Source of the DNA: an uncultured Candidatus Saccharibacteria bacterium
GTDB lineage: Bacteria; Patescibacteriota; Minisyncoccia; Phycocordibacterales; CAIZLB01
NCBI GenBank assembly: GCA_964417855.1
Contig: CAYQJB010000001.1
Coordinates: 38,709 to 102,708 of the forward strand
DNA: 64,000 bases
Reading direction: 5' to 3'
The notes below the pieces were generated by a model. The model searched no databases, was not told where the DNA came from, and saw only the letters and a list, made by a program, of their open reading frames with translations. How positions within the stretch are numbered: the stretch's first letter is position 1; each line of letters begins with the position of its first letter. The position numbers were made by a program, and so were the translations under genes. This document shows, piece by piece, positions 13,225-41,363 of this stretch.

Positions 13225-15105
13225 ATGAAAAAATACATCAACTCAAATAGCATACTTGTCGTGACTATCTTGATTGCCCTCATAAGCTATGCCTTTCTAA
13301 GATCCACAGAATATAGGCAATATATTGATACGATTATTGTATCCATAACAATTATAGGTTCCCTTCCTATAGCCTATAATCTAATAATTTCCATATACAA
13401 AAAACAGTTTGGAGTGGATCTTATCGCTCTTTTTGCAATTATAGCAACGCTTTTGACCAACGAGCATCTCGCTGGTGCAATTATTCTTTTAATGCTTTCT
13501 ACTGGAGTTTTTCTTGAAAAATATGCAGAAGGCCAAGCAAAAAATGCACTGGAAAATCTATTAAGATACGCCCCCACAAAGGCACATAGAGTTATAAAAG
13601 GTACAACAAATTTTGAGGATATAACTGTTCAAGAAATTAAAATTGGTGACACACTACTTATTAAACGAGGAGAAATTATGCCCGTCGATGGCGTTGTTGT
13701 TTCAGGAGTATCTTCAATTGATGAATCTATTGTTACCGGAGAACCAATGCCAAGGAGTGTTAAACCGAGTTCAAAGGTTTGGAGTGGTACTACAAATACA
13801 GTTGATGTAATTTATATTAAGTCTACAACAAATTATGAACAAAGTACTTTCTCAGCAATCATCAGATTAGTAGAAAGAGCTCAAGATGAAAAAGCTCCCA
13901 CAGTTAGGTTGGCAAACAAATTCAGTGTAGTCTTCACTGTCACGACTTTCATTATGGCTGGTATCGCATGGTACATTGATCCAAAACTAGTTGCAGCTGT
14001 TTTAGTTGTTGCAACACCCTGCCCTCTTATCCTAGCGGCGCCGATTGCTTTCATTGCTGGAATGAGTAGATCAGCAAAGAATGGAATTATAGTTAAGCAT
14101 GGTGGAGTGTTTGAATTAATTACAAAAGCGCATTCTTTCTTTTTCGATAAAACAGGCACGCTCACTTTTGGTGTACCTCAGGTGAATAAAATTATTATTT
14201 TGGATAATAGTTCTGATAAAGGTATATCAGCAAAAAAGTGGACCAAGGAGGAGGTCTTAGCACTCTCTGCTTCTGTTGAACAATTCTCTACACATATACT
14301 TTCACAAAGTATTGTAGCCCTTGCTAACACTCAAAAACTTGATTTATTTGTACCTGAAAAGTTTGAAGAAACATTAGGTCAGGGTATAAGTGGGATAGTT
14401 AAGACAAATAGTCATGAGGCTACAGTTGTTGACGGTAGAGCGTCCCTGTTAGAATCAAAAGGAATTACAATTAGCGGTGAGGCAAAAAGACTTGTCGCAG
14501 AAGCAAAGGCCACAGGGGAGATGGCAATATACATTGCGGTTAATAACAGAAATGTTGCAGTGATGACTTTCTCAGACAAAATAAGAAGTGACATTGCTGA
14601 TATTTTAGAAAAGATAAAAGAAACAGGAGCTGAAATTGTTTTGGTAACTGGCGACACTGAGGATAGGGCTCAAAAAATTGGTGAAGAATTAGGTTTTACG
14701 ATAATTGAAGCGAATTGTCTACCAGAACATAAGATGGATTTAATACAAAAATATGAAGCCGCTGGAAAGCCTGTAGTGATGATTGGTGATGGAGTTAATG
14801 ACGCACCAGCAATCGGACGAGCAAGCGTTGGTATTGCACTTGGATATCATGGAGCAACTGCATCGACGGATACAGCTGATGCAATAATTACCTCAGATGA
14901 TACAGCAAAGGTTTTAAAATTAATTCAGATTAGCCATAAGACAATGACCATTGCCATGCAGTCTATTTTTATTGGAATGGCATTAAGTTTAACAGCAATG
15001 GTTTTTGCTATATTTGGTTTTATAACTCCAATTTCAGGTGCGCTACTTCAGGAAGCGATTGATGTTTTGGTTATATTAAATGCTTTGCGTGCGCTGAGGA
15101 ATTAA
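13225..15105 (+). CDS. P-type cation-transporting ATPase (P1B-like, no N-terminal metal-binding domain)
   Basis: TGEP, DKTGTLT, GDGVNDAPA, and a TPCPL (CPx-like) motif in a TM helix. Confidence 0.8.
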   Translation: MKKYINSNSILVVTILIALISYAFLRSTEYRQYIDTIIVSITIIGSLPIAYNLIISIYKKQFGVDLIALFAIIATLLTNEHLAGAIILLMLSTGVFLEKYAEGQAKNALENLLRYAPTKAHRVIKGTTNFEDITVQEIKIGDTLLIKRGEIMPVDGVVVSGVSSIDESIVTGEPMPRSVKPSSKVWSGTTNTVDVIYIKSTTNYEQSTFSAIIRLVERAQDEKAPTVRLANKFSVVFTVTTFIMAGIAWYIDPKLVAAVLVVATPCPLILAAPIAFIAGMSRSAKNGIIVKHGGVFELITKAHSFFFDKTGTLTFGVPQVNKIIILDNSSDKGISAKKWTKEEVLALSASVEQFSTHILSQSIVALANTQKLDLFVPEKFEETLGQGISGIVKTNSHEATVVDGRASLLESKGITISGEAKRLVAEAKATGEMAIYIAVNNRNVAVMTFSDKIRSDIADILEKIKETGAEIVLVTGDTEDRAQKIGEELGFTIIEANCLPEHKMDLIQKYEAAGKPVVMIGDGVNDAPAIGRASVGIALGYHGATASTDTADAIITSDDTAKVLKLIQISHKTMTIAMQSIFIGMALSLTAMVFAIFGFITPISGALLQEAIDVLVILNALRALRN

Positions 15106-15165
15106 TACATATCACAATAGCCCAAAGACTACTTATAACGCTAATATTCGTAGAACCTGATTAAT

Positions 15166-15195
15166 TTGACACAAAAATATAATCCATGATAAACT
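15166..15195 (+). promoter_or_regulatory. sigma70-like element TTGACA-N18-TAAACT, antisense to the mazF-like gene 3' end
   Basis: Motif read directly. The same -10 context gaTAAACT..AGTAC recurs at 40720-40747. The same -35 context ttaatTTGACAC recurs at 15794. Confidence 0.35.
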
Positions 15196-15268
15196 GTAAG
15201 TACGTTTTGAGATTAACGTGCACAGTTGATCTTTTGATTCTGGTTTAGCAATGAACCAGATGACAATT

Positions 15269-15687
15269 TTAGGGAAGCTCAAGTAAAATCTTGAGTTTTT
15301 CTTTTACCTTATTTAAATCAGATAGGCTAAGTTCCCCTATTTTTACAGATAATCTCTTTTTATCAATCATGCGAATCTGATATAACATCACACATACAAC
15401 CTCATTGTTCAATCTGACGTTTGAAAACCATGTACCTTTTTTTGTTTGTAAGTCATCGGCAGCCCGATACACAGACTTGAGGATAATTTCTTAATTACTA
15501 AAATAGGACGTCTAAATACATCTCCTTTGCCAAACGACTCCTCCCCAACATTAATACCAACAGAACACCACCATACGTCACCCTCTCTAAAGTACATCAC
15601 CTGATTTTGATAATGTTCAGCAAATTGAATACTTTGTTTTTTACTATTCCAATCATTGTATTTCTCTATCTTTTTTTCTTTTTCCAT
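15269..15687 (-). pseudogene. MazF/EndoA (PemK)-family endoribonuclease toxin, split into two frames (15409-15687 and 15269-15472) at an A7 tract
   Basis: The two partial ORFs align collinearly with the intact 139-aa paralog at 40783-41202. The frame break is at CAAAAAAAG (15436-15442). Confidence 0.6.
15277..15305 (+). terminator. plus-strand hairpin CTCAAG-taaaat-CTTGAG plus TTTTTCTTTT, overlapping the stop of 15269-15687
   Basis: Read directly. The U-tract is on the plus-strand side only. Confidence 0.45.
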
Positions 15688-15723
15688 TCAACAAACATAA
15701 CAAATCACACCTATGATTTTCAT
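15688..15723 (-). CDS. mini-ORF MKIIGVICYVC; its stop TGA abuts the mazF ATG
   Basis: Hand translation. The first 9 codons resemble the N-terminus of NYN protein 15876-16391 (MKIAGVVCY). Confidence 0.3.
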   Translation of the reverse strand: MKIIGVICYVC

Positions 15724-15751
15724 AAAGAAATTCTAAATAAAACCATTAGTA
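15716..15751 (-). promoter_or_regulatory. conserved leader motif ATTTAGAATTTCTTTATGAAAAT (minus-strand reading), copy 1 of 3
   Basis: 33 of 36 nt identical to 16384-16419. A related copy lies at 41231-41264. Confidence 0.5.
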
Positions 15752-15793
15752 GATATAAAATATACCGATTGCCACCGATAGAATCCTATTAAT

Positions 15794-15821
15794 TTGACAC
15801 GAACGAGCGCCCTACTATATA
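15794..15821 (+). promoter_or_regulatory. sigma70-like element TTGACA-N16-TATATA, preceded by the tagaatcctattaatTTGACAC context
   Basis: 19 of 22 nt identical to 15151-15172. Confidence 0.3.
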
Positions 15822-15835
15822 CTATAAATACGCCA

Positions 15836-15884
15836 AAAAAGATCTTGTTAAGCCGCGTGCTTAATGAGAGCTTTTTTATTTTTC
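15836..15884. terminator. long imperfect hairpin (17-bp stem, one mismatch) AAAAGATCTTGTTAAGC-cgcgt-GCTTAATGAGAGCTTTT plus T-tract, at the NYN gene stop
   Basis: Read directly; bidirectional (A-tract before, T-tract after). Confidence 0.6.
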
Positions 15885-16391
15885 TAGATGACGCTTAATT
15901 TGTATCAAGTACATAAGCCTTAAGTATGATCTCTGTTTTATAAAAATCGATGTGCTTGATGGAGTCACCGCTATACATAAAACTAATTTACCCATATCAC
16001 GAGCGTAATCCATTAAGAAGACAAAGTTCCCATCACCTGATATTATTACTATTTTATCAACCAGACTTCTCTCCACGTCTAGTGTCATTCTGTTTGTTAG
16101 TTCAACGTCACAATTGGCTTTAATTCTACCTCCCTCCATAGATATTTGTTTTATGACTAATTCAACACGGTACTCATTGAGAGTATATTTAATATTTTCT
16201 AAATACAGGACATCACCGACAAAGAAAATTATTTTACAATCTTTATGTTTATCATAAAGATATTTAAAAAGCTTACCTAAATCTAAATTAAAATTTATTC
16301 TTTTTGCACACAGAATAACATTAGCTGCATCTATATATATTGAGGTTAATTTCACCCCTAGATGGTAGCAAACCACTCCTGCTATTTTCAT
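15876..16391 (-). CDS. NYN-domain (LabA/PIN-like) predicted RNase
   Basis: IYIDAANV N-terminus and IISGDGNFV (GDxDF-type) motif. Confidence 0.65.
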   Translation of the reverse strand: MKIAGVVCYHLGVKLTSIYIDAANVILCAKRINFNLDLGKLFKYLYDKHKDCKIIFFVGDVLYLENIKYTLNEYRVELVIKQISMEGGRIKANCDVELTNRMTLDVERSLVDKIVIISGDGNFVFLMDYARDMGKLVLCIAVTPSSTSIFIKQRSYLRLMYLIQIKRHLEK

Positions 16392-20153: not shown

Positions 20154-21239
20154 TCAGAACATCATCTTGCCATGAGGCCAATCCTGCAATTTCCAATTCA
20201 GAGTTGTTCCTCCCTTGAAGATTTGAACCGGGCCTAATTTCATGGGGACTTCCCACGACTCACGCTTAATTGTCATAAACTCGGTAGATACCTCCATGTC
20301 ATACAGATCAATGAAGTTCTCTGACATGAATGGACCCAGATGTTTCAAGGCATTATCTTCATCGAAGATTGTTGTATATAATTCAACAGCATTTGGTGCA
20401 GTGAAGATACCAGCTGCACATCCGTAACAATGAGACTTCGCAGCTTCATCATGAGGAGCAGAATCAGTTCCCGCTCCAAAACGAGGGTTTCCAGAAGTGA
20501 CATGCTTCCGAACACGCATACGATGCTCTTCACGCTTAGGCACAGGTTTGCAATAGTTCCCTGGATTCATTCCACCCAAGAACATTGCATTCCTGTTGAT
20601 CATCATGCCTTGAGGAGTAGCTGTTGCATAAATTGGATGGTCAACCTCCGCTACAAAGTCTGCAGAACGTCCATCGGTAATGTGTTCAAACACAACCTTG
20701 AGCCCTGGGAAGACTTTTATCAACGGAACCAAATCACGCTCAATGGAAACAATCTCGCGATCGAATTCATCAACCTCTCGCTCAGCCGCTTCAAAGTGAC
20801 CAAGAAGTGGAATACCATGTTTCTCCATCATTTCAAAGACAGGGTATCTTCCAAGAAGATTTCTGACTCCATGTTGGGATCCCGTTGTTCCCCCTTCTCC
20901 ATTCTTGTCAGCCATATACAATTTGACAGCAGTAAGATATCCAGTGTCAATCCACTTCTTGATTTCAGAGGCTGGAGTTGTGTCGGTGAGATACAACGCC
21001 AAACGCGGTTCAAAGTCACTCCACCAAGGAAGGGTTTCTTTGATTCGGCGATAATAAGCTTCAACCTTTTCCGGCGTATCAATCTGATCAGGATATTTCA
21101 GGTTAGGCATAATCAGCGCACCACTTGCCTGTTGGCAAACAGTAGCTGGCAATACCAGACTCATCACTTCTCCATCTCTCACATGTAAATGGCGATCAAA
21201 CCATCTTTTAATCAAGATTTTATTTTGTTTTTCTTTCAC
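20154..21239 (-). CDS. pyrC: dihydroorotase, type II (E. coli PyrC-like); GC-richer than the genome background
   Basis: WFDRHLHVRDG, LKVVFEHIT and GTDSAPH align with E. coli PyrC. Confidence 0.8.
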   Translation of the reverse strand: MKEKQNKILIKRWFDRHLHVRDGEVMSLVLPATVCQQASGALIMPNLKYPDQIDTPEKVEAYYRRIKETLPWWSDFEPRLALYLTDTTPASEIKKWIDTGYLTAVKLYMADKNGEGGTTGSQHGVRNLLGRYPVFEMMEKHGIPLLGHFEAAEREVDEFDREIVSIERDLVPLIKVFPGLKVVFEHITDGRSADFVAEVDHPIYATATPQGMMINRNAMFLGGMNPGNYCKPVPKREEHRMRVRKHVTSGNPRFGAGTDSAPHDEAAKSHCYGCAAGIFTAPNAVELYTTIFDEDNALKHLGPFMSENFIDLYDMEVSTEFMTIKRESWEVPMKLGPVQIFKGGTTLNWKLQDWPHGKMMF

Positions 21240-39664: not shown

Positions 39665-40567
39665 TTATTCCGCAAAGAACTTTTTCTCTGCCTGTATAAA
39701 ATCGTCCAGATCTCCACTTAAAACATTCTCCACCTTACTAGTCTCCTCCCCAGTCCTATGATCCTTAACCATTTTATATGGATGAAGTACATATGATCTT
39801 ATCTGATTCCCCCACTCGGCATCCGTAGTCTTGCTCACATATAAACCTTTTTCTTTTGCCAGTCTTTCTTCTTCTTGATGTGCATATATTTTGGCCTTCA
39901 ACATTGCAATTCCTTTTTCTCTATTCTGTAACTGCGAACGTTCAGTTGTAACATGCACAGACATTTTTGTTGGCTTATGAACAATCCTAACTGCAGTTTC
40001 CCTTTTATTTACATTCTGTCCCCCAGGACCTCCGGCTCTTGCATAGGAGTATTCCAATTCATCTTCTGGAATTTCAATATCAACTTCCCTTTCAAATTTT
40101 GGTACAACCTCAACCATAGAAAAACTTGTATGTCTTAATTGTTTTGAATTAAACGGAGAAAGTCTAACAAGCCTATGCACTCCTGACTCATGTTTTAAAG
40201 TTCCGTAAGCGTTCTTTCCATCTATGTCAAAAGAGACATTTCTGTATCCTCCGTGATCATTTTTGTGTTCGTGAATCAAGGTCATACTCCAGCCTTTTTT
40301 TGAGATGAACTTCTGATACATTTCAAATAGCATTCTAGAGAAATCTTCTGAATCATCCCCTCCAGCTCCTGAGAAGATTGTAATAATAGCCGAGCCTCCG
40401 TCATAAGGGCTTCCACCAAGACCGCTTGCAAGCTCTGTTTTTAGGTCCTGAAGCTCTTTTATTGTAGCCTGCGCTGTTGTTGAATCATTCCAAAAATCAA
40501 CAGCGTTCATTGCTGATTCTATTTCAATTATTCTAGCTTCTTTTTCTTTTTTGTTTAGATTATTCAT
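39665..40567 (-). CDS. prfB: peptide chain release factor 2
   Basis: SPF tripeptide and GGQ motif (GGPGGQNVNKRET). Confidence 0.85.
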   Translation of the reverse strand: MNNLNKKEKEARIIEIESAMNAVDFWNDSTTAQATIKELQDLKTELASGLGGSPYDGGSAIITIFSGAGGDDSEDFSRMLFEMYQKFISKKGWSMTLIHEHKNDHGGYRNVSFDIDGKNAYGTLKHESGVHRLVRLSPFNSKQLRHTSFSMVEVVPKFEREVDIEIPEDELEYSYARAGGPGGQNVNKRETAVRIVHKPTKMSVHVTTERSQLQNREKGIAMLKAKIYAHQEEERLAKEKGLYVSKTTDAEWGNQIRSYVLHPYKMVKDHRTGEETSKVENVLSGDLDDFIQAEKKFFAE

Positions 40568-40719
40568 GTTTTTAGACCTGATTAAGCATATTTTCCTAAC
40601 ACGATTCGCATTACTCCATCTACTCCGTGACCCTTCCCTTTTATTGGTATTTTAGCATAAATTTGGGTTTTCTTTATCTTTCCCTTGGTAATTCGAAACC
40701 CCGCCAGATAAACAAAAAT

Positions 40720-40747
40720 TTGACAAGCCAAAATTATTTGATAAACT
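40720..40747 (+). promoter_or_regulatory. sigma70-like element TTGACA-N16-TAAACT, antisense to and 35 nt upstream of the mazF stop
   Basis: Same gaTAAACT...AGTAC context as 15188-15203. Confidence 0.35.
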
Positions 40748-40773
40748 AAAAGTACAAATGGGGTATCCCAACC

Positions 40774-40818
40774 GCCCGAGCCTTAAAACCGCTCGGGCTT
40801 AAGGTTTGATTTTATTTT
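40774..40818 (+). terminator. plus-strand hairpin GCCCGAGC-N9-GCTCGGGC followed by a T-rich run, overlapping the mazF stop
   Basis: Read directly. Confidence 0.45.
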
Positions 40819-41202
40819 AATCAGATCTTTTATAGACCTCTGTATCATTGCGAAATCTTTGTCTGACAAATATCCGATATGAGTGTCTAGCCTTTTTGTA
40901 TCCAAAACCCTAAGTTGAGAGATTATAACAGACTGCTCAGTATTTTTCAGTAAGACCTTCACATAATAGATATTGTCTTTATTTTTAGTACTCATTGGTA
41001 TTCCCCAAAAAATGTTATTATTGAATTTTTTGAATACCAAAACAGGCCTTCGAAATATATACCCTTTTCCGTTTTCTTCATCCCCAACATTCTCCCCCAG
41101 TGCGCACCATCGAACCTCACCTTCTTTAATATAGATTCCCTTCCTTTCTTTTTTATCCAAATTAATTTTCACATATATCCAATCAATAAATATTTTTAGC
41201 AT
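40783..41202 (-). CDS. MazF/EndoA (PemK)-family endoribonuclease toxin with approx 25-aa N-terminal extension; no antitoxin gene adjacent
   Basis: EGEVRWCALGENVGDEENGKG..RRPVLV and SVIISQLRVLDTKRLDTHIGYLSDKDFAMIQRSI align with B. subtilis EndoA ([25 protein letters not shown] / [32 protein letters not shown]). Confidence 0.7.
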   Translation of the reverse strand: MLKIFIDWIYVKINLDKKERKGIYIKEGEVRWCALGENVGDEENGKGYIFRRPVLVFKKFNNNIFWGIPMSTKNKDNIYYVKVLLKNTEQSVIISQLRVLDTKRLDTHIGYLSDKDFAMIQRSIKDLIKIKSNLKPERF

Positions 41203-41286: not shown

Positions 41287-41363
41287 TGGAGCCAATGGAC
41301 GGGATCGAACCGTCGGCCTGCACGTTACGAATGTGCCGCTCTACCAACTGAGCTACATCGGCT
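41287..41363 (-). tRNA. tRNA-Thr (anticodon CGU), CCA encoded
   Basis: Cloverleaf: GCCGATG/CATTGGC acceptor, GCTC-AGTTGGTA-GAGC D-arm, TTCGTAA anticodon loop, GACGG-TTCGATC-CCGTC T-arm. Confidence 0.85.

Follow-up and report, generated by a model that had tools for sequence, protein, structure and literature searches.

A MazF-like toxin-type gene most likely inactivated by a recent one-base deletion, and a conserved convergent antisense RNA module predicted at its 3′ end, in an uncultured Candidatus Saccharibacteria bacterium

The window analysed was a stretch of 64,000 nucleotides from an uncultured Candidatus Saccharibacteria bacterium (contig CAYQJB010000001.1 of assembly GCA_964417855.1), which contains two genes with the fold of the MazF/PemK endoribonuclease toxins, an intact one and a broken one, the latter called copy 1 here. 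Copy 1 was split between two reading frames of the minus strand at the heptamer A_AAA_AAG. This break is best explained by a recent one-base deletion that made copy 1 a pseudogene; the heptamer would then be incidental, and any rescue of the frame by slippage would be unselected and would stay below about 1%. A conserved RNA gene, predicted to be antisense to the 3′ end of the toxin gene, was found beside copy 1, beside its paralog and beside nearly every other member of the family.

The two parts of copy 1 appeared as overlapping open reading frames (ORFs) of the minus strand, 15409–15687 and 15269–15472 (67 amino acids, aa), and represented the halves of one PemK/MazF-fold gene. The minus-strand text at the break read ..CCG ATG ACT TAC AAA CAA AAA AAG GTA CAT GGT TTT CAA ACG TCA GAT TGA. 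The heptamer consisted of G15436 and the six A's before it, which close an A7 run (15437–15443, a T7 run on the plus strand), and was read in the zero frame as CA-A AAA AAG. The zero-frame ORF encoded 92 residues, of which 84 were native and the last eight (VHGFQTSD) were out of frame, and ended at a TGA codon (15409–15411). In the −1 frame the text after the break read GGT ACA TGG.. (GTWFSNVRL..), and a −1 slip or an eighth A linked ..MTYKQKK to GTWFSNVRL.. in a fused protein of 139 residues. The text and its translation confirmed the original prediction that copy 1 is split exactly at A_AAA_AAG in this phase; heptamer and phase are identical to those of Escherichia coli dnaX. The restored protein was collinear with the paralog at 40783–41202, as had also been claimed, with 41% identity and no gaps. 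The paralog had, however, been described as free of any A-run at the homologous spot, where in fact an A5 run was present (ACT AAA AAT AAA). The features of both copies and of their flanks are collected in Table 1.

Table 1. Coordinates of the MazF-like genes, of the predicted RNA modules and of the flanking elements in the window
Feature	Position	Strand	Details
Heptamer A_AAA_AAG	15436–15442	−	Frame break of MazF-like copy 1; sequence read directly, phase by translation
5′ part of copy 1	15437–15687	−	Codons 1–84, MEKEKK..MTYKQKK; ORF list, Pfam PF02452
3′ part of copy 1	15269–15436	−	−1 frame, codons 85–139, GTWFSNVRL..LLELP, TAA 15269–15271
Convergent sigma-70-type promoter, copy 1	15166–15195	+	TTGACA, 18 nt, TAAACT, extended −10 TG; promoter scan, alignment A2
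Predicted antisense small RNA, copy 1	15202–15305	+	About 100 nt; covariance model R1; transcript ends inferred
P1 helix of this RNA	15210–15217/15225–15232	+	
P2 helix of this RNA	15240–15245/15254–15259	+	
P3 helix of this RNA	15278–15283/15290–15295	+	Followed by U-run 15296–15305, terminator-like
Direct repeat, copy A	15151–15175	+	25 nt, imperfect (21/25); holds −35 of the antisense promoter
Direct repeat, copy B	15779–15803	+	25 nt; holds −35 of the second plus-strand promoter (15794–15823)
Unit convergent on the NYN gene (15876–16391, −)	15794–15869	+	Promoter 15794–15823, hairpin and T-run 15843–15869
Intact distant paralog	40783–41202	−	139 aa, 41% identity to copy 1
Promoter and structured antisense RNA at 3′ end of paralog	40700–40822	+	TTGACA 40720–40725, 16 nt, TAAACT 40742–40747

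The fused protein of 139 residues matched the Pfam family PemK_toxin (PF02452) across the junction, over positions 2–109 of 109, with an E-value of 1.3e-13 and a score of 51.5 bits against a curated cut-off of 23.1. The family profile matched B. subtilis EndoA/MazF with an E-value of 4.8e-09. In the AlphaFold (AF2) model of the conceptual fused protein (pLDDT 81.7, pTM 0.74), the junction was located in a loop (residues 80–87) between two strands (residues 72–79 and 88–93). The best Foldseek matches of this model were the MazF structures 4me7, 1ne8, and 4mzp, with a probability of 1.00 and target-normalised TM values of 0.70–0.76, and the closest structures were those of B. subtilis and S. aureus MazF. 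The SH3-like barrel of the MazF/Kid fold was thus recognised, a result that holds for the conceptual fused protein alone, with an additional N-terminal helix (residues 2–22) on the MazF-fold domain. The Arg and Thr residues that aligned with the catalytic residues of B. subtilis MazF were retained. Around the break, the family had the motif T-S-K-x-K-x-G-T-W-F, in which the Lys at position 83 was invariant. The paralog also gave a weak match to CptIN (E 0.039). According to the model, the 92-residue product would lack four β-strands of the MazF fold as well as its C-terminal helix, and is therefore expected to be inactive.

To compare the split of copy 1 with the gene family, JGI metagenomes and a single genome for each species were scanned with a profile, which gave 160 loci with 165 copies (153 distinct), essentially all from Patescibacteria. 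Residues 75–95 were read in one frame in all 165 copies, and none of these (0/165) was split at the site of the break. Unrelated lesions were found at other positions, including a TAA codon at the invariant Gln104 (L097), TAG or TGA codons at Trp40 (L101/L102 and L153), a TAG codon in L162, and TAA codons in L156 and L062. The only other frameshifted copy (L020) was broken near residue 100. In total, single nonsense codons or a frameshift occurred in about 5% of the fetched family copies, and since these disruptions lay at various positions, inactivation of the toxin is recurrent in the family. Unrelated disruptions typical of pseudogenisation were the very result that the original prediction, in proposing a comparison of orthologs, had named as speaking against a programmed event. 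As a separate observation, several in-frame TGA codons stood at conserved glycine columns (for example GK*E and NKQ*TWF, the asterisk marking TGA) in L032, L147, L144, L037, and L164, which fits Gracilibacteria, Absconditabacteria, and other lineages in which UGA encodes Gly (genetic code 25).

The sequence AAAAAAG was counted 56 times in the window (36.5% G+C). For the 56 non-overlapping ORFs of 120 aa or more, codon usage predicts 7.2 occurrences of A_AAA_AAG in the shift-prone phase, and nine were observed; the in-phase heptamer is therefore not avoided in ordinary ORFs. It was also present, with 34 in-phase copies in total, in 33 of the 153 distinct intact homologs, six of which carried it in the same Lys-rich stretch. 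A_AAA_AAG is an ordinary Lys-Lys dicodon here, and the lack of avoidance argues against strong shiftiness in these organisms. Nor is the phase of the heptamer independent evidence, because a one-base deletion in CAA AAA AAA GGT or in CAA AAA ATA GGT necessarily yields CAA AAA AAG G.. and so creates it automatically. Both candidate ancestral states were observed in intact relatives, in L007 (GAA AAA AAA GGA; A8, KEKKG) and in L171 (CAA AAA ATA GGT ACT TGG), and six intact homologs contained A7–A8 at the same spot without disruption. The loss of one base from a sequence that encodes Lys-Lys-Gly can hence leave a "canonical" slippery heptamer at the break of a gene as a mere by-product.

In the proposed course of events, the ancestor of copy 1 would have read ..AAA CAA AAA AAA GGT.. 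or ..AAA CAA AAA ATA GGT.., and the loss of one A, or of the T, in this lysine-rich stretch would leave CAA AAA AAG GTA. A gene for a MazF/PemK-fold endoribonuclease-type toxin would thereby have been inactivated, its translation yielding the 84 native and 8 out-of-frame residues. A trace of full-length protein may come from spontaneous slippage of the ribosome or of RNA polymerase on the A-run, with no sign that such slippage is under selection or regulation. The predicted antisense RNA gene is still intact beside copy 1, which agrees with a loss of the toxin before that of its partner. Of the 48 family columns with a conservation of 90% or more, copy 1 retained 46, the median of the intact members being one mismatch. 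The lesion appears recent because the conserved columns were retained as in intact members and no second lesion was found.

Several points weigh against a dead gene. The lesion is single, and the downstream frame was fully open to the usual stop position of the family and kept 17 of its 18 family-conserved columns; a gene that is still expressed would look the same in this region. No damage was apparent in the promoter region or in the antisense RNA partner either. The heptamer A_AAA_AAG is among the most shift-prone ones in E. coli, and some full-length product is therefore plausible. The closest relative in the databases searched had 67% protein identity, which is too distant to date the lesion or to reveal purifying selection on the downstream part.

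No orthologous locus by which the lesion could be dated was found. The nearest homologs of the neighbouring NYN gene (75% and 66% identity) were not followed by a MazF-like gene, and the nearest MazF homologs (P0002 and P0004) were located upstream of a gap-rpiB-rpe-tkt cluster, which was not in the window. A protein antitoxin was looked for upstream of copy 1, but the minus strand of 15688–15875 held no ORF of 20 aa or more. Across about 144 loci, neighbouring ORFs of 45 aa or more were not conserved, the largest cluster covering eight loci. The different loci in the nearest relatives, together with the lack of an antitoxin or conserved neighbour in these searches, point to a mobile "solitary" gene of toxin type in variable contexts.

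Stated in this way, the finding is an ordinary frameshift pseudogene. Ordinary homopolymer frameshift pseudogenes, the singleton fs-genes of GeneTack, share with copy 1 a lineage-specific poly-A indel, homology on both sides, and the lack of a conserved frameshift site in the family (PMC3711429); no difference of substance was seen, and this is the category that copy 1 fits. In the same study, singleton frameshifts validated by BLASTp or Pfam were classed as indel mutations, pseudogenes, or errors (PMC3711429). Copy 1 also resembled the "saviour indel" of the G-run mutants of herpes simplex thymidine kinase (PMC5009743), in which a one-base homopolymer indel inactivates a potentially harmful gene while unprogrammed slippage could still supply trace product. 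In the thymidine kinase, however, the trace activity was demonstrated and was selected under drug pressure, whereas any product of copy 1, and any role of it, is hypothetical. Among the alternatives listed in the original prediction, a decaying pseudogene is the one that the evidence supports, with unrelated lesions in the homologs, a unique split, and a reproducible A7 tract.

The other alternatives listed there fared poorly. Programmed −1 ribosomal frameshifting of the dnaX or IS3 type, by which a regulated slip on A_AAA_AAG would set the dosage of full-length toxin, is very improbable. The heptamer conformed to X_XXY_YYZ in the zero-frame phase at 15436–15442, the zero-frame stop followed eight codons on, the −1 frame gave the complete MazF fold, and the downstream part was undecayed. 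Programmed frameshifts, however, need a site that is conserved in a cluster of genes (PMC3711429), and the split was unique among the 153 distinct homologs. The stem-loop or pseudoknot for which the original prediction had advised a search was not found downstream of the heptamer: the following 70 nt folded with −11.1 kcal/mol, compared with −13.9 ± 2.5 kcal/mol in shuffles (z = +1.12), and the folding of the 140-nt context was no better than that of shuffles (z = +0.11). No Shine–Dalgarno-like element (GGAGG-like, GGAG, or GAGG) was present within 25 nt upstream of the heptamer, and no Rfam frameshift element matched in 14900–16100. Heptamers without a stimulator reached only 2.1–10 times a background of 0.055% in E. 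coli reporters, which is far below 1% (PMC4066793). In addition, A_AAA_AAG owes its high efficiency in E. coli to the presence of only one tRNA-Lys there (PMC5009743), and no tRNA-Lys gene was found in the window, where the tRNAs were those for Gln, Thr (two), Asp, and Met (two). The in-phase heptamer was also tolerated in ordinary window genes and in intact family members, as described above. In E. coli dnaX, with the identical heptamer in the identical phase, the site is accompanied by an upstream Shine–Dalgarno-like stimulator and a downstream stem-loop, and is conserved across genera, whereas copy 1 had neither element and its site was not conserved. The shift in dnaX makes a shorter product, while copy 1 would need the shift for its only functional product.

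Phase variation was considered equally improbable. Slipped-strand mispairing in the tract would toggle the toxin between ON (A8) and OFF (A7) in the population; the homopolymer lies within the ORF, one-step reversibility is possible in principle, and repair systems are reduced in many Patescibacteria. However, the A7 product was found on 19 of 19 contigs, and no A6 or A8 variant of the tract was recorded in these consensus assemblies and contigs, which cannot show minor alleles. Seven A's are also short for a contingency tract, and the six intact homologs with A7–A8 at the same spot were not disrupted. The deletion itself may even have created the tract, from AAAAAATA.

The same contigs were used to examine whether the A7 tract is real. 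The exact truncated ORF of 92 residues was found in a public collection on those 19 contigs, which came from at least six datasets; their sources were the NCBI metagenome-assembled genome GCA_037127815.1, two ENA MEGAHIT assemblies, two JGI metagenomes, and a Logan assembly. The six loci fetched (NCBI, ENA, JGI, and Logan) matched the window with 100.000% identity along stretches of up to 10,279 bases, with the same 419-nt gene text in each. No protein identical to the repaired full-length (A8) product was present among 5.8 billion clustered proteins, and the 90% cluster of the truncated ORF had no second member. In the window, 34 other coding A-runs of at least seven bases were in frame in intact long ORFs, and homopolymer miscalls are therefore not pervasive in the assembly. 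The A7 tract is thus real and is present in every assembly of the population. A sequencing or assembly error, in which the true genome would have A8 and an intact gene, had been put forward as well; homopolymers are classic miscall sites, and copy 1 was otherwise perfect. Such an error, slightly less probable even than the two preceding explanations, is made unlikely by the tract, which was identical, with no mismatch around it, in 19 contigs from independent assemblies and pipelines.

Transcriptional slippage, in which RNA polymerase would add an A on the A7/T7 run and restore the frame in a useful share of the mRNA, is the least probable explanation. A/T runs do cause polymerase slippage, and poly(A) rescue of frameshifted genes is documented in endosymbionts (PMC5009743), but programmed realignment uses A-runs longer than 7 (PMC3711429), the documented programmed runs being longer than 7 A or 8 T and typically 9 or more (PMC3711429; PMC5009743), and the site was not conserved in the family.

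The probable deletion pseudogene was accompanied by a predicted RNA gene that converges on it. The promoter of this gene was homologous to the element TTGACA-N16/17-TGnTATAAT conserved 3′ of the family genes, and the predicted RNA extended over the stop codon of copy 1 and ~35 nt at the end of its toxin ORF. The module at the 3′ end of the paralog had the same architecture (alignment A2). In the window, the covariance model R1 matched only at the two MazF-like copies, with 94.4 bits at copy 1 (15146–15308, plus strand) and with 43.9 bits at the paralog (E 4.5e-06), the row of which was in the training set.

Inspection of the 3′ flanks (loci L007–L174) revealed the module behind nearly every member of the family. 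The promoter (TTGACA, 16–17 nt, TGnTATAAT) was present in 67 of 76 aligned rows, and a strict promoter pattern at a fixed distance was found in 68 of 138 3′ flanks, compared with 1/146 and 0/146 in control regions. In alignment A2 the promoter was followed by ..ACUUUUGGG-loop-CCCA-CCGAUC, a GC-rich hairpin, and UGAUGAUU. In most subfamilies a third hairpin and a U-run were located within the last codons of the toxin ORF. The three helices were 90.9% paired, compared with 73.1% in shuffles, and their covariation score was 0.467, compared with 0.162 in shuffles, none of which (0/500) reached the observed score, and with at most 0.153 for slid partners. Compensatory changes were found in all seven pairs of the central hairpin, and when this hairpin was read on the antisense strand, G·U exceeded A·C by 36 to 7. 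The covariance model gave 72 matches in 90 non-training loci, some of which duplicate training sequences, and all matches were antisense at the 3′ end of the gene. Rfam gave nothing at or near threshold on 14900–16100, on 16 homolog loci, and on one element.

The RNA gene was intact beside the broken copy 1 and beside several other loci with a disrupted toxin (L097 and L101), which is the order of decay expected for a toxin–antitoxin pair. The predicted antisense RNA is probably either an antitoxin or another regulator of the toxin. Sequence conservation in the unpaired segments of the RNA hints at something beyond antisense pairing alone. Furthermore, the seemingly conserved C-terminal tails of some longer homologs (..RHPxEAGIEGxNPKSN.., ..GDRRE.., and ..DRWxIPKV..; P0008, P0009, P0011–P0013, P0021, P0041, and others; loci L097, L153, and L156) corresponded to the RNA element translated in three different frames. 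These tails are probably artefacts of read-through or annotation and do not reflect conservation of the protein.

The RNA module combined a geometry like that of type I systems, a toxin like that of type II, and a structured RNA like that of type III, and it lacked a defining feature of each. With the type II systems MazEF and PemIK it shared the MazF fold, the Pfam family, and the aligned Arg and Thr of the toxin. MazEF, however, has an adjacent co-oriented gene for a protein antitoxin, while none was found at copy 1, where a convergent small RNA gene was located instead, and the protein of copy 1 has the extra N-terminal helix. B. subtilis txpA/RatA and bsrG/SR4 are type I systems with a convergent antisense RNA that overlaps at the 3′ end. 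As judged from sequence, the family likewise had a small RNA gene that converges on the toxin gene, has a promoter and a terminator of its own, and overlaps the toxin mRNA at the 3′ end. The toxins of type I systems are small hydrophobic membrane peptides, whereas the family toxin is a 139-aa protein of the MazF/RNase fold, and the family RNA was strongly conserved in sequence and structure, beyond the need of a plain cis-antisense RNA. In type III systems (ToxIN and CptIN), an RNase toxin is also paired with a structured RNA and not with a protein, and the toxins share the wider Kid/MazF-like fold. The type III antitoxins are tandem repeats upstream on the strand of the toxin, whereas the family RNA was single-copy, downstream, and convergent, and no type III-like tandem repeats were found in 15100–16000. 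A search of the available literature for frameshifted MazF, for MazF of Patescibacteria, and for MazF with convergent RNA antitoxins returned nothing relevant.

A wider interpretation is put forward tentatively and is on balance doubtful. Copy 1 could be the toxin-dead relic of an undescribed toxin–antitoxin-like module that is widespread in Patescibacteria and pairs a MazF RNase with a convergent RNA of ~100 nt whose sequence and structure are conserved, and the A7 tract could be a "saviour" indel that leaves trace toxin by unprogrammed slippage on A_AAA_AAG. In such a module the RNA would overlap the 3′ end of the toxin gene and replace a protein antitoxin, possibly through RNA–protein binding of the type III kind.

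The two imperfect direct repeats that flank copy 1 (Table 1) shared the exact 13-mer ATTAATTTGACAC. This sequence was considered as a general promoter motif and was ruled out, since its exact occurrences were confined to the two flanks of copy 1. Direct repeats 540–660 nt apart also bracketed the MazF-like gene at other loci, where they were 31–134 nt long and 85–96% identical: L151 (1455–1578/2094–2217), L165 (2841–2923/3458–3540), L079 (2880–2934/3488–3542), L120, L037, L136, L078, and L148. The direct-repeat score of eight of 124 loci was above that of all 395 mismatched-flank controls. In L165, the cassette was located between atpA and atpG, and the last 83 nt of atpA were duplicated. The flanking repeats suggest a small mobile cassette with long target duplications.

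A second convergent unit was located at the 3′ end of the adjacent gene for an NYN (PIN-like nuclease) protein. After its promoter (TTGACA, 18 nt, TATACT) came a conserved hairpin (AAAAAGATCTTGYTAAG..GTGCTTARTGA) with a T-run, and the unit was conserved in the NYN homologs of 66–75% identity (L167, L168, and L169). Model R1 gave no match there, and the unit therefore represents a different RNA with the same architecture.

The intact paralog had a tRNA-Thr(CGT) gene (41287–41362, minus strand) at a distance of 85 nt on its upstream side, as is typical of integrated elements. The paralog was bracketed by a 27-nt inverted repeat (40651–40677/41248–41274, 81% complementary), which may be due to chance in AT-rich DNA. 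Among the 56 long ORFs of the window, 51 were on the minus strand, a strong strand bias, and the stop codons were TAA in 36, TAG in 19, and TGA in one (ORF 20154–21239). An ORF similar to prfB (39665–40567, minus strand) encoded a short release factor of the RF2 type (300 aa) with SPF and GGQ motifs, and no CTT TGA +1 frameshift site was visible upstream of its ATG codon.

The frameshift itself matters little, being one more homopolymer indel in a dispensable gene of toxin type. The antisense RNA module deserves separate attention, more than the frameshift does. Members of the MazF-like family are present in hundreds of candidate phyla radiation species, with no protein antitoxin but with a conserved convergent small RNA that shows clear covariation and has no Rfam entry. 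If the RNA is the antitoxin, the division of toxin–antitoxin systems into types I, II, and III would be blurred, and the presence of "solitary" MazF genes in these tiny genomes would be explained.

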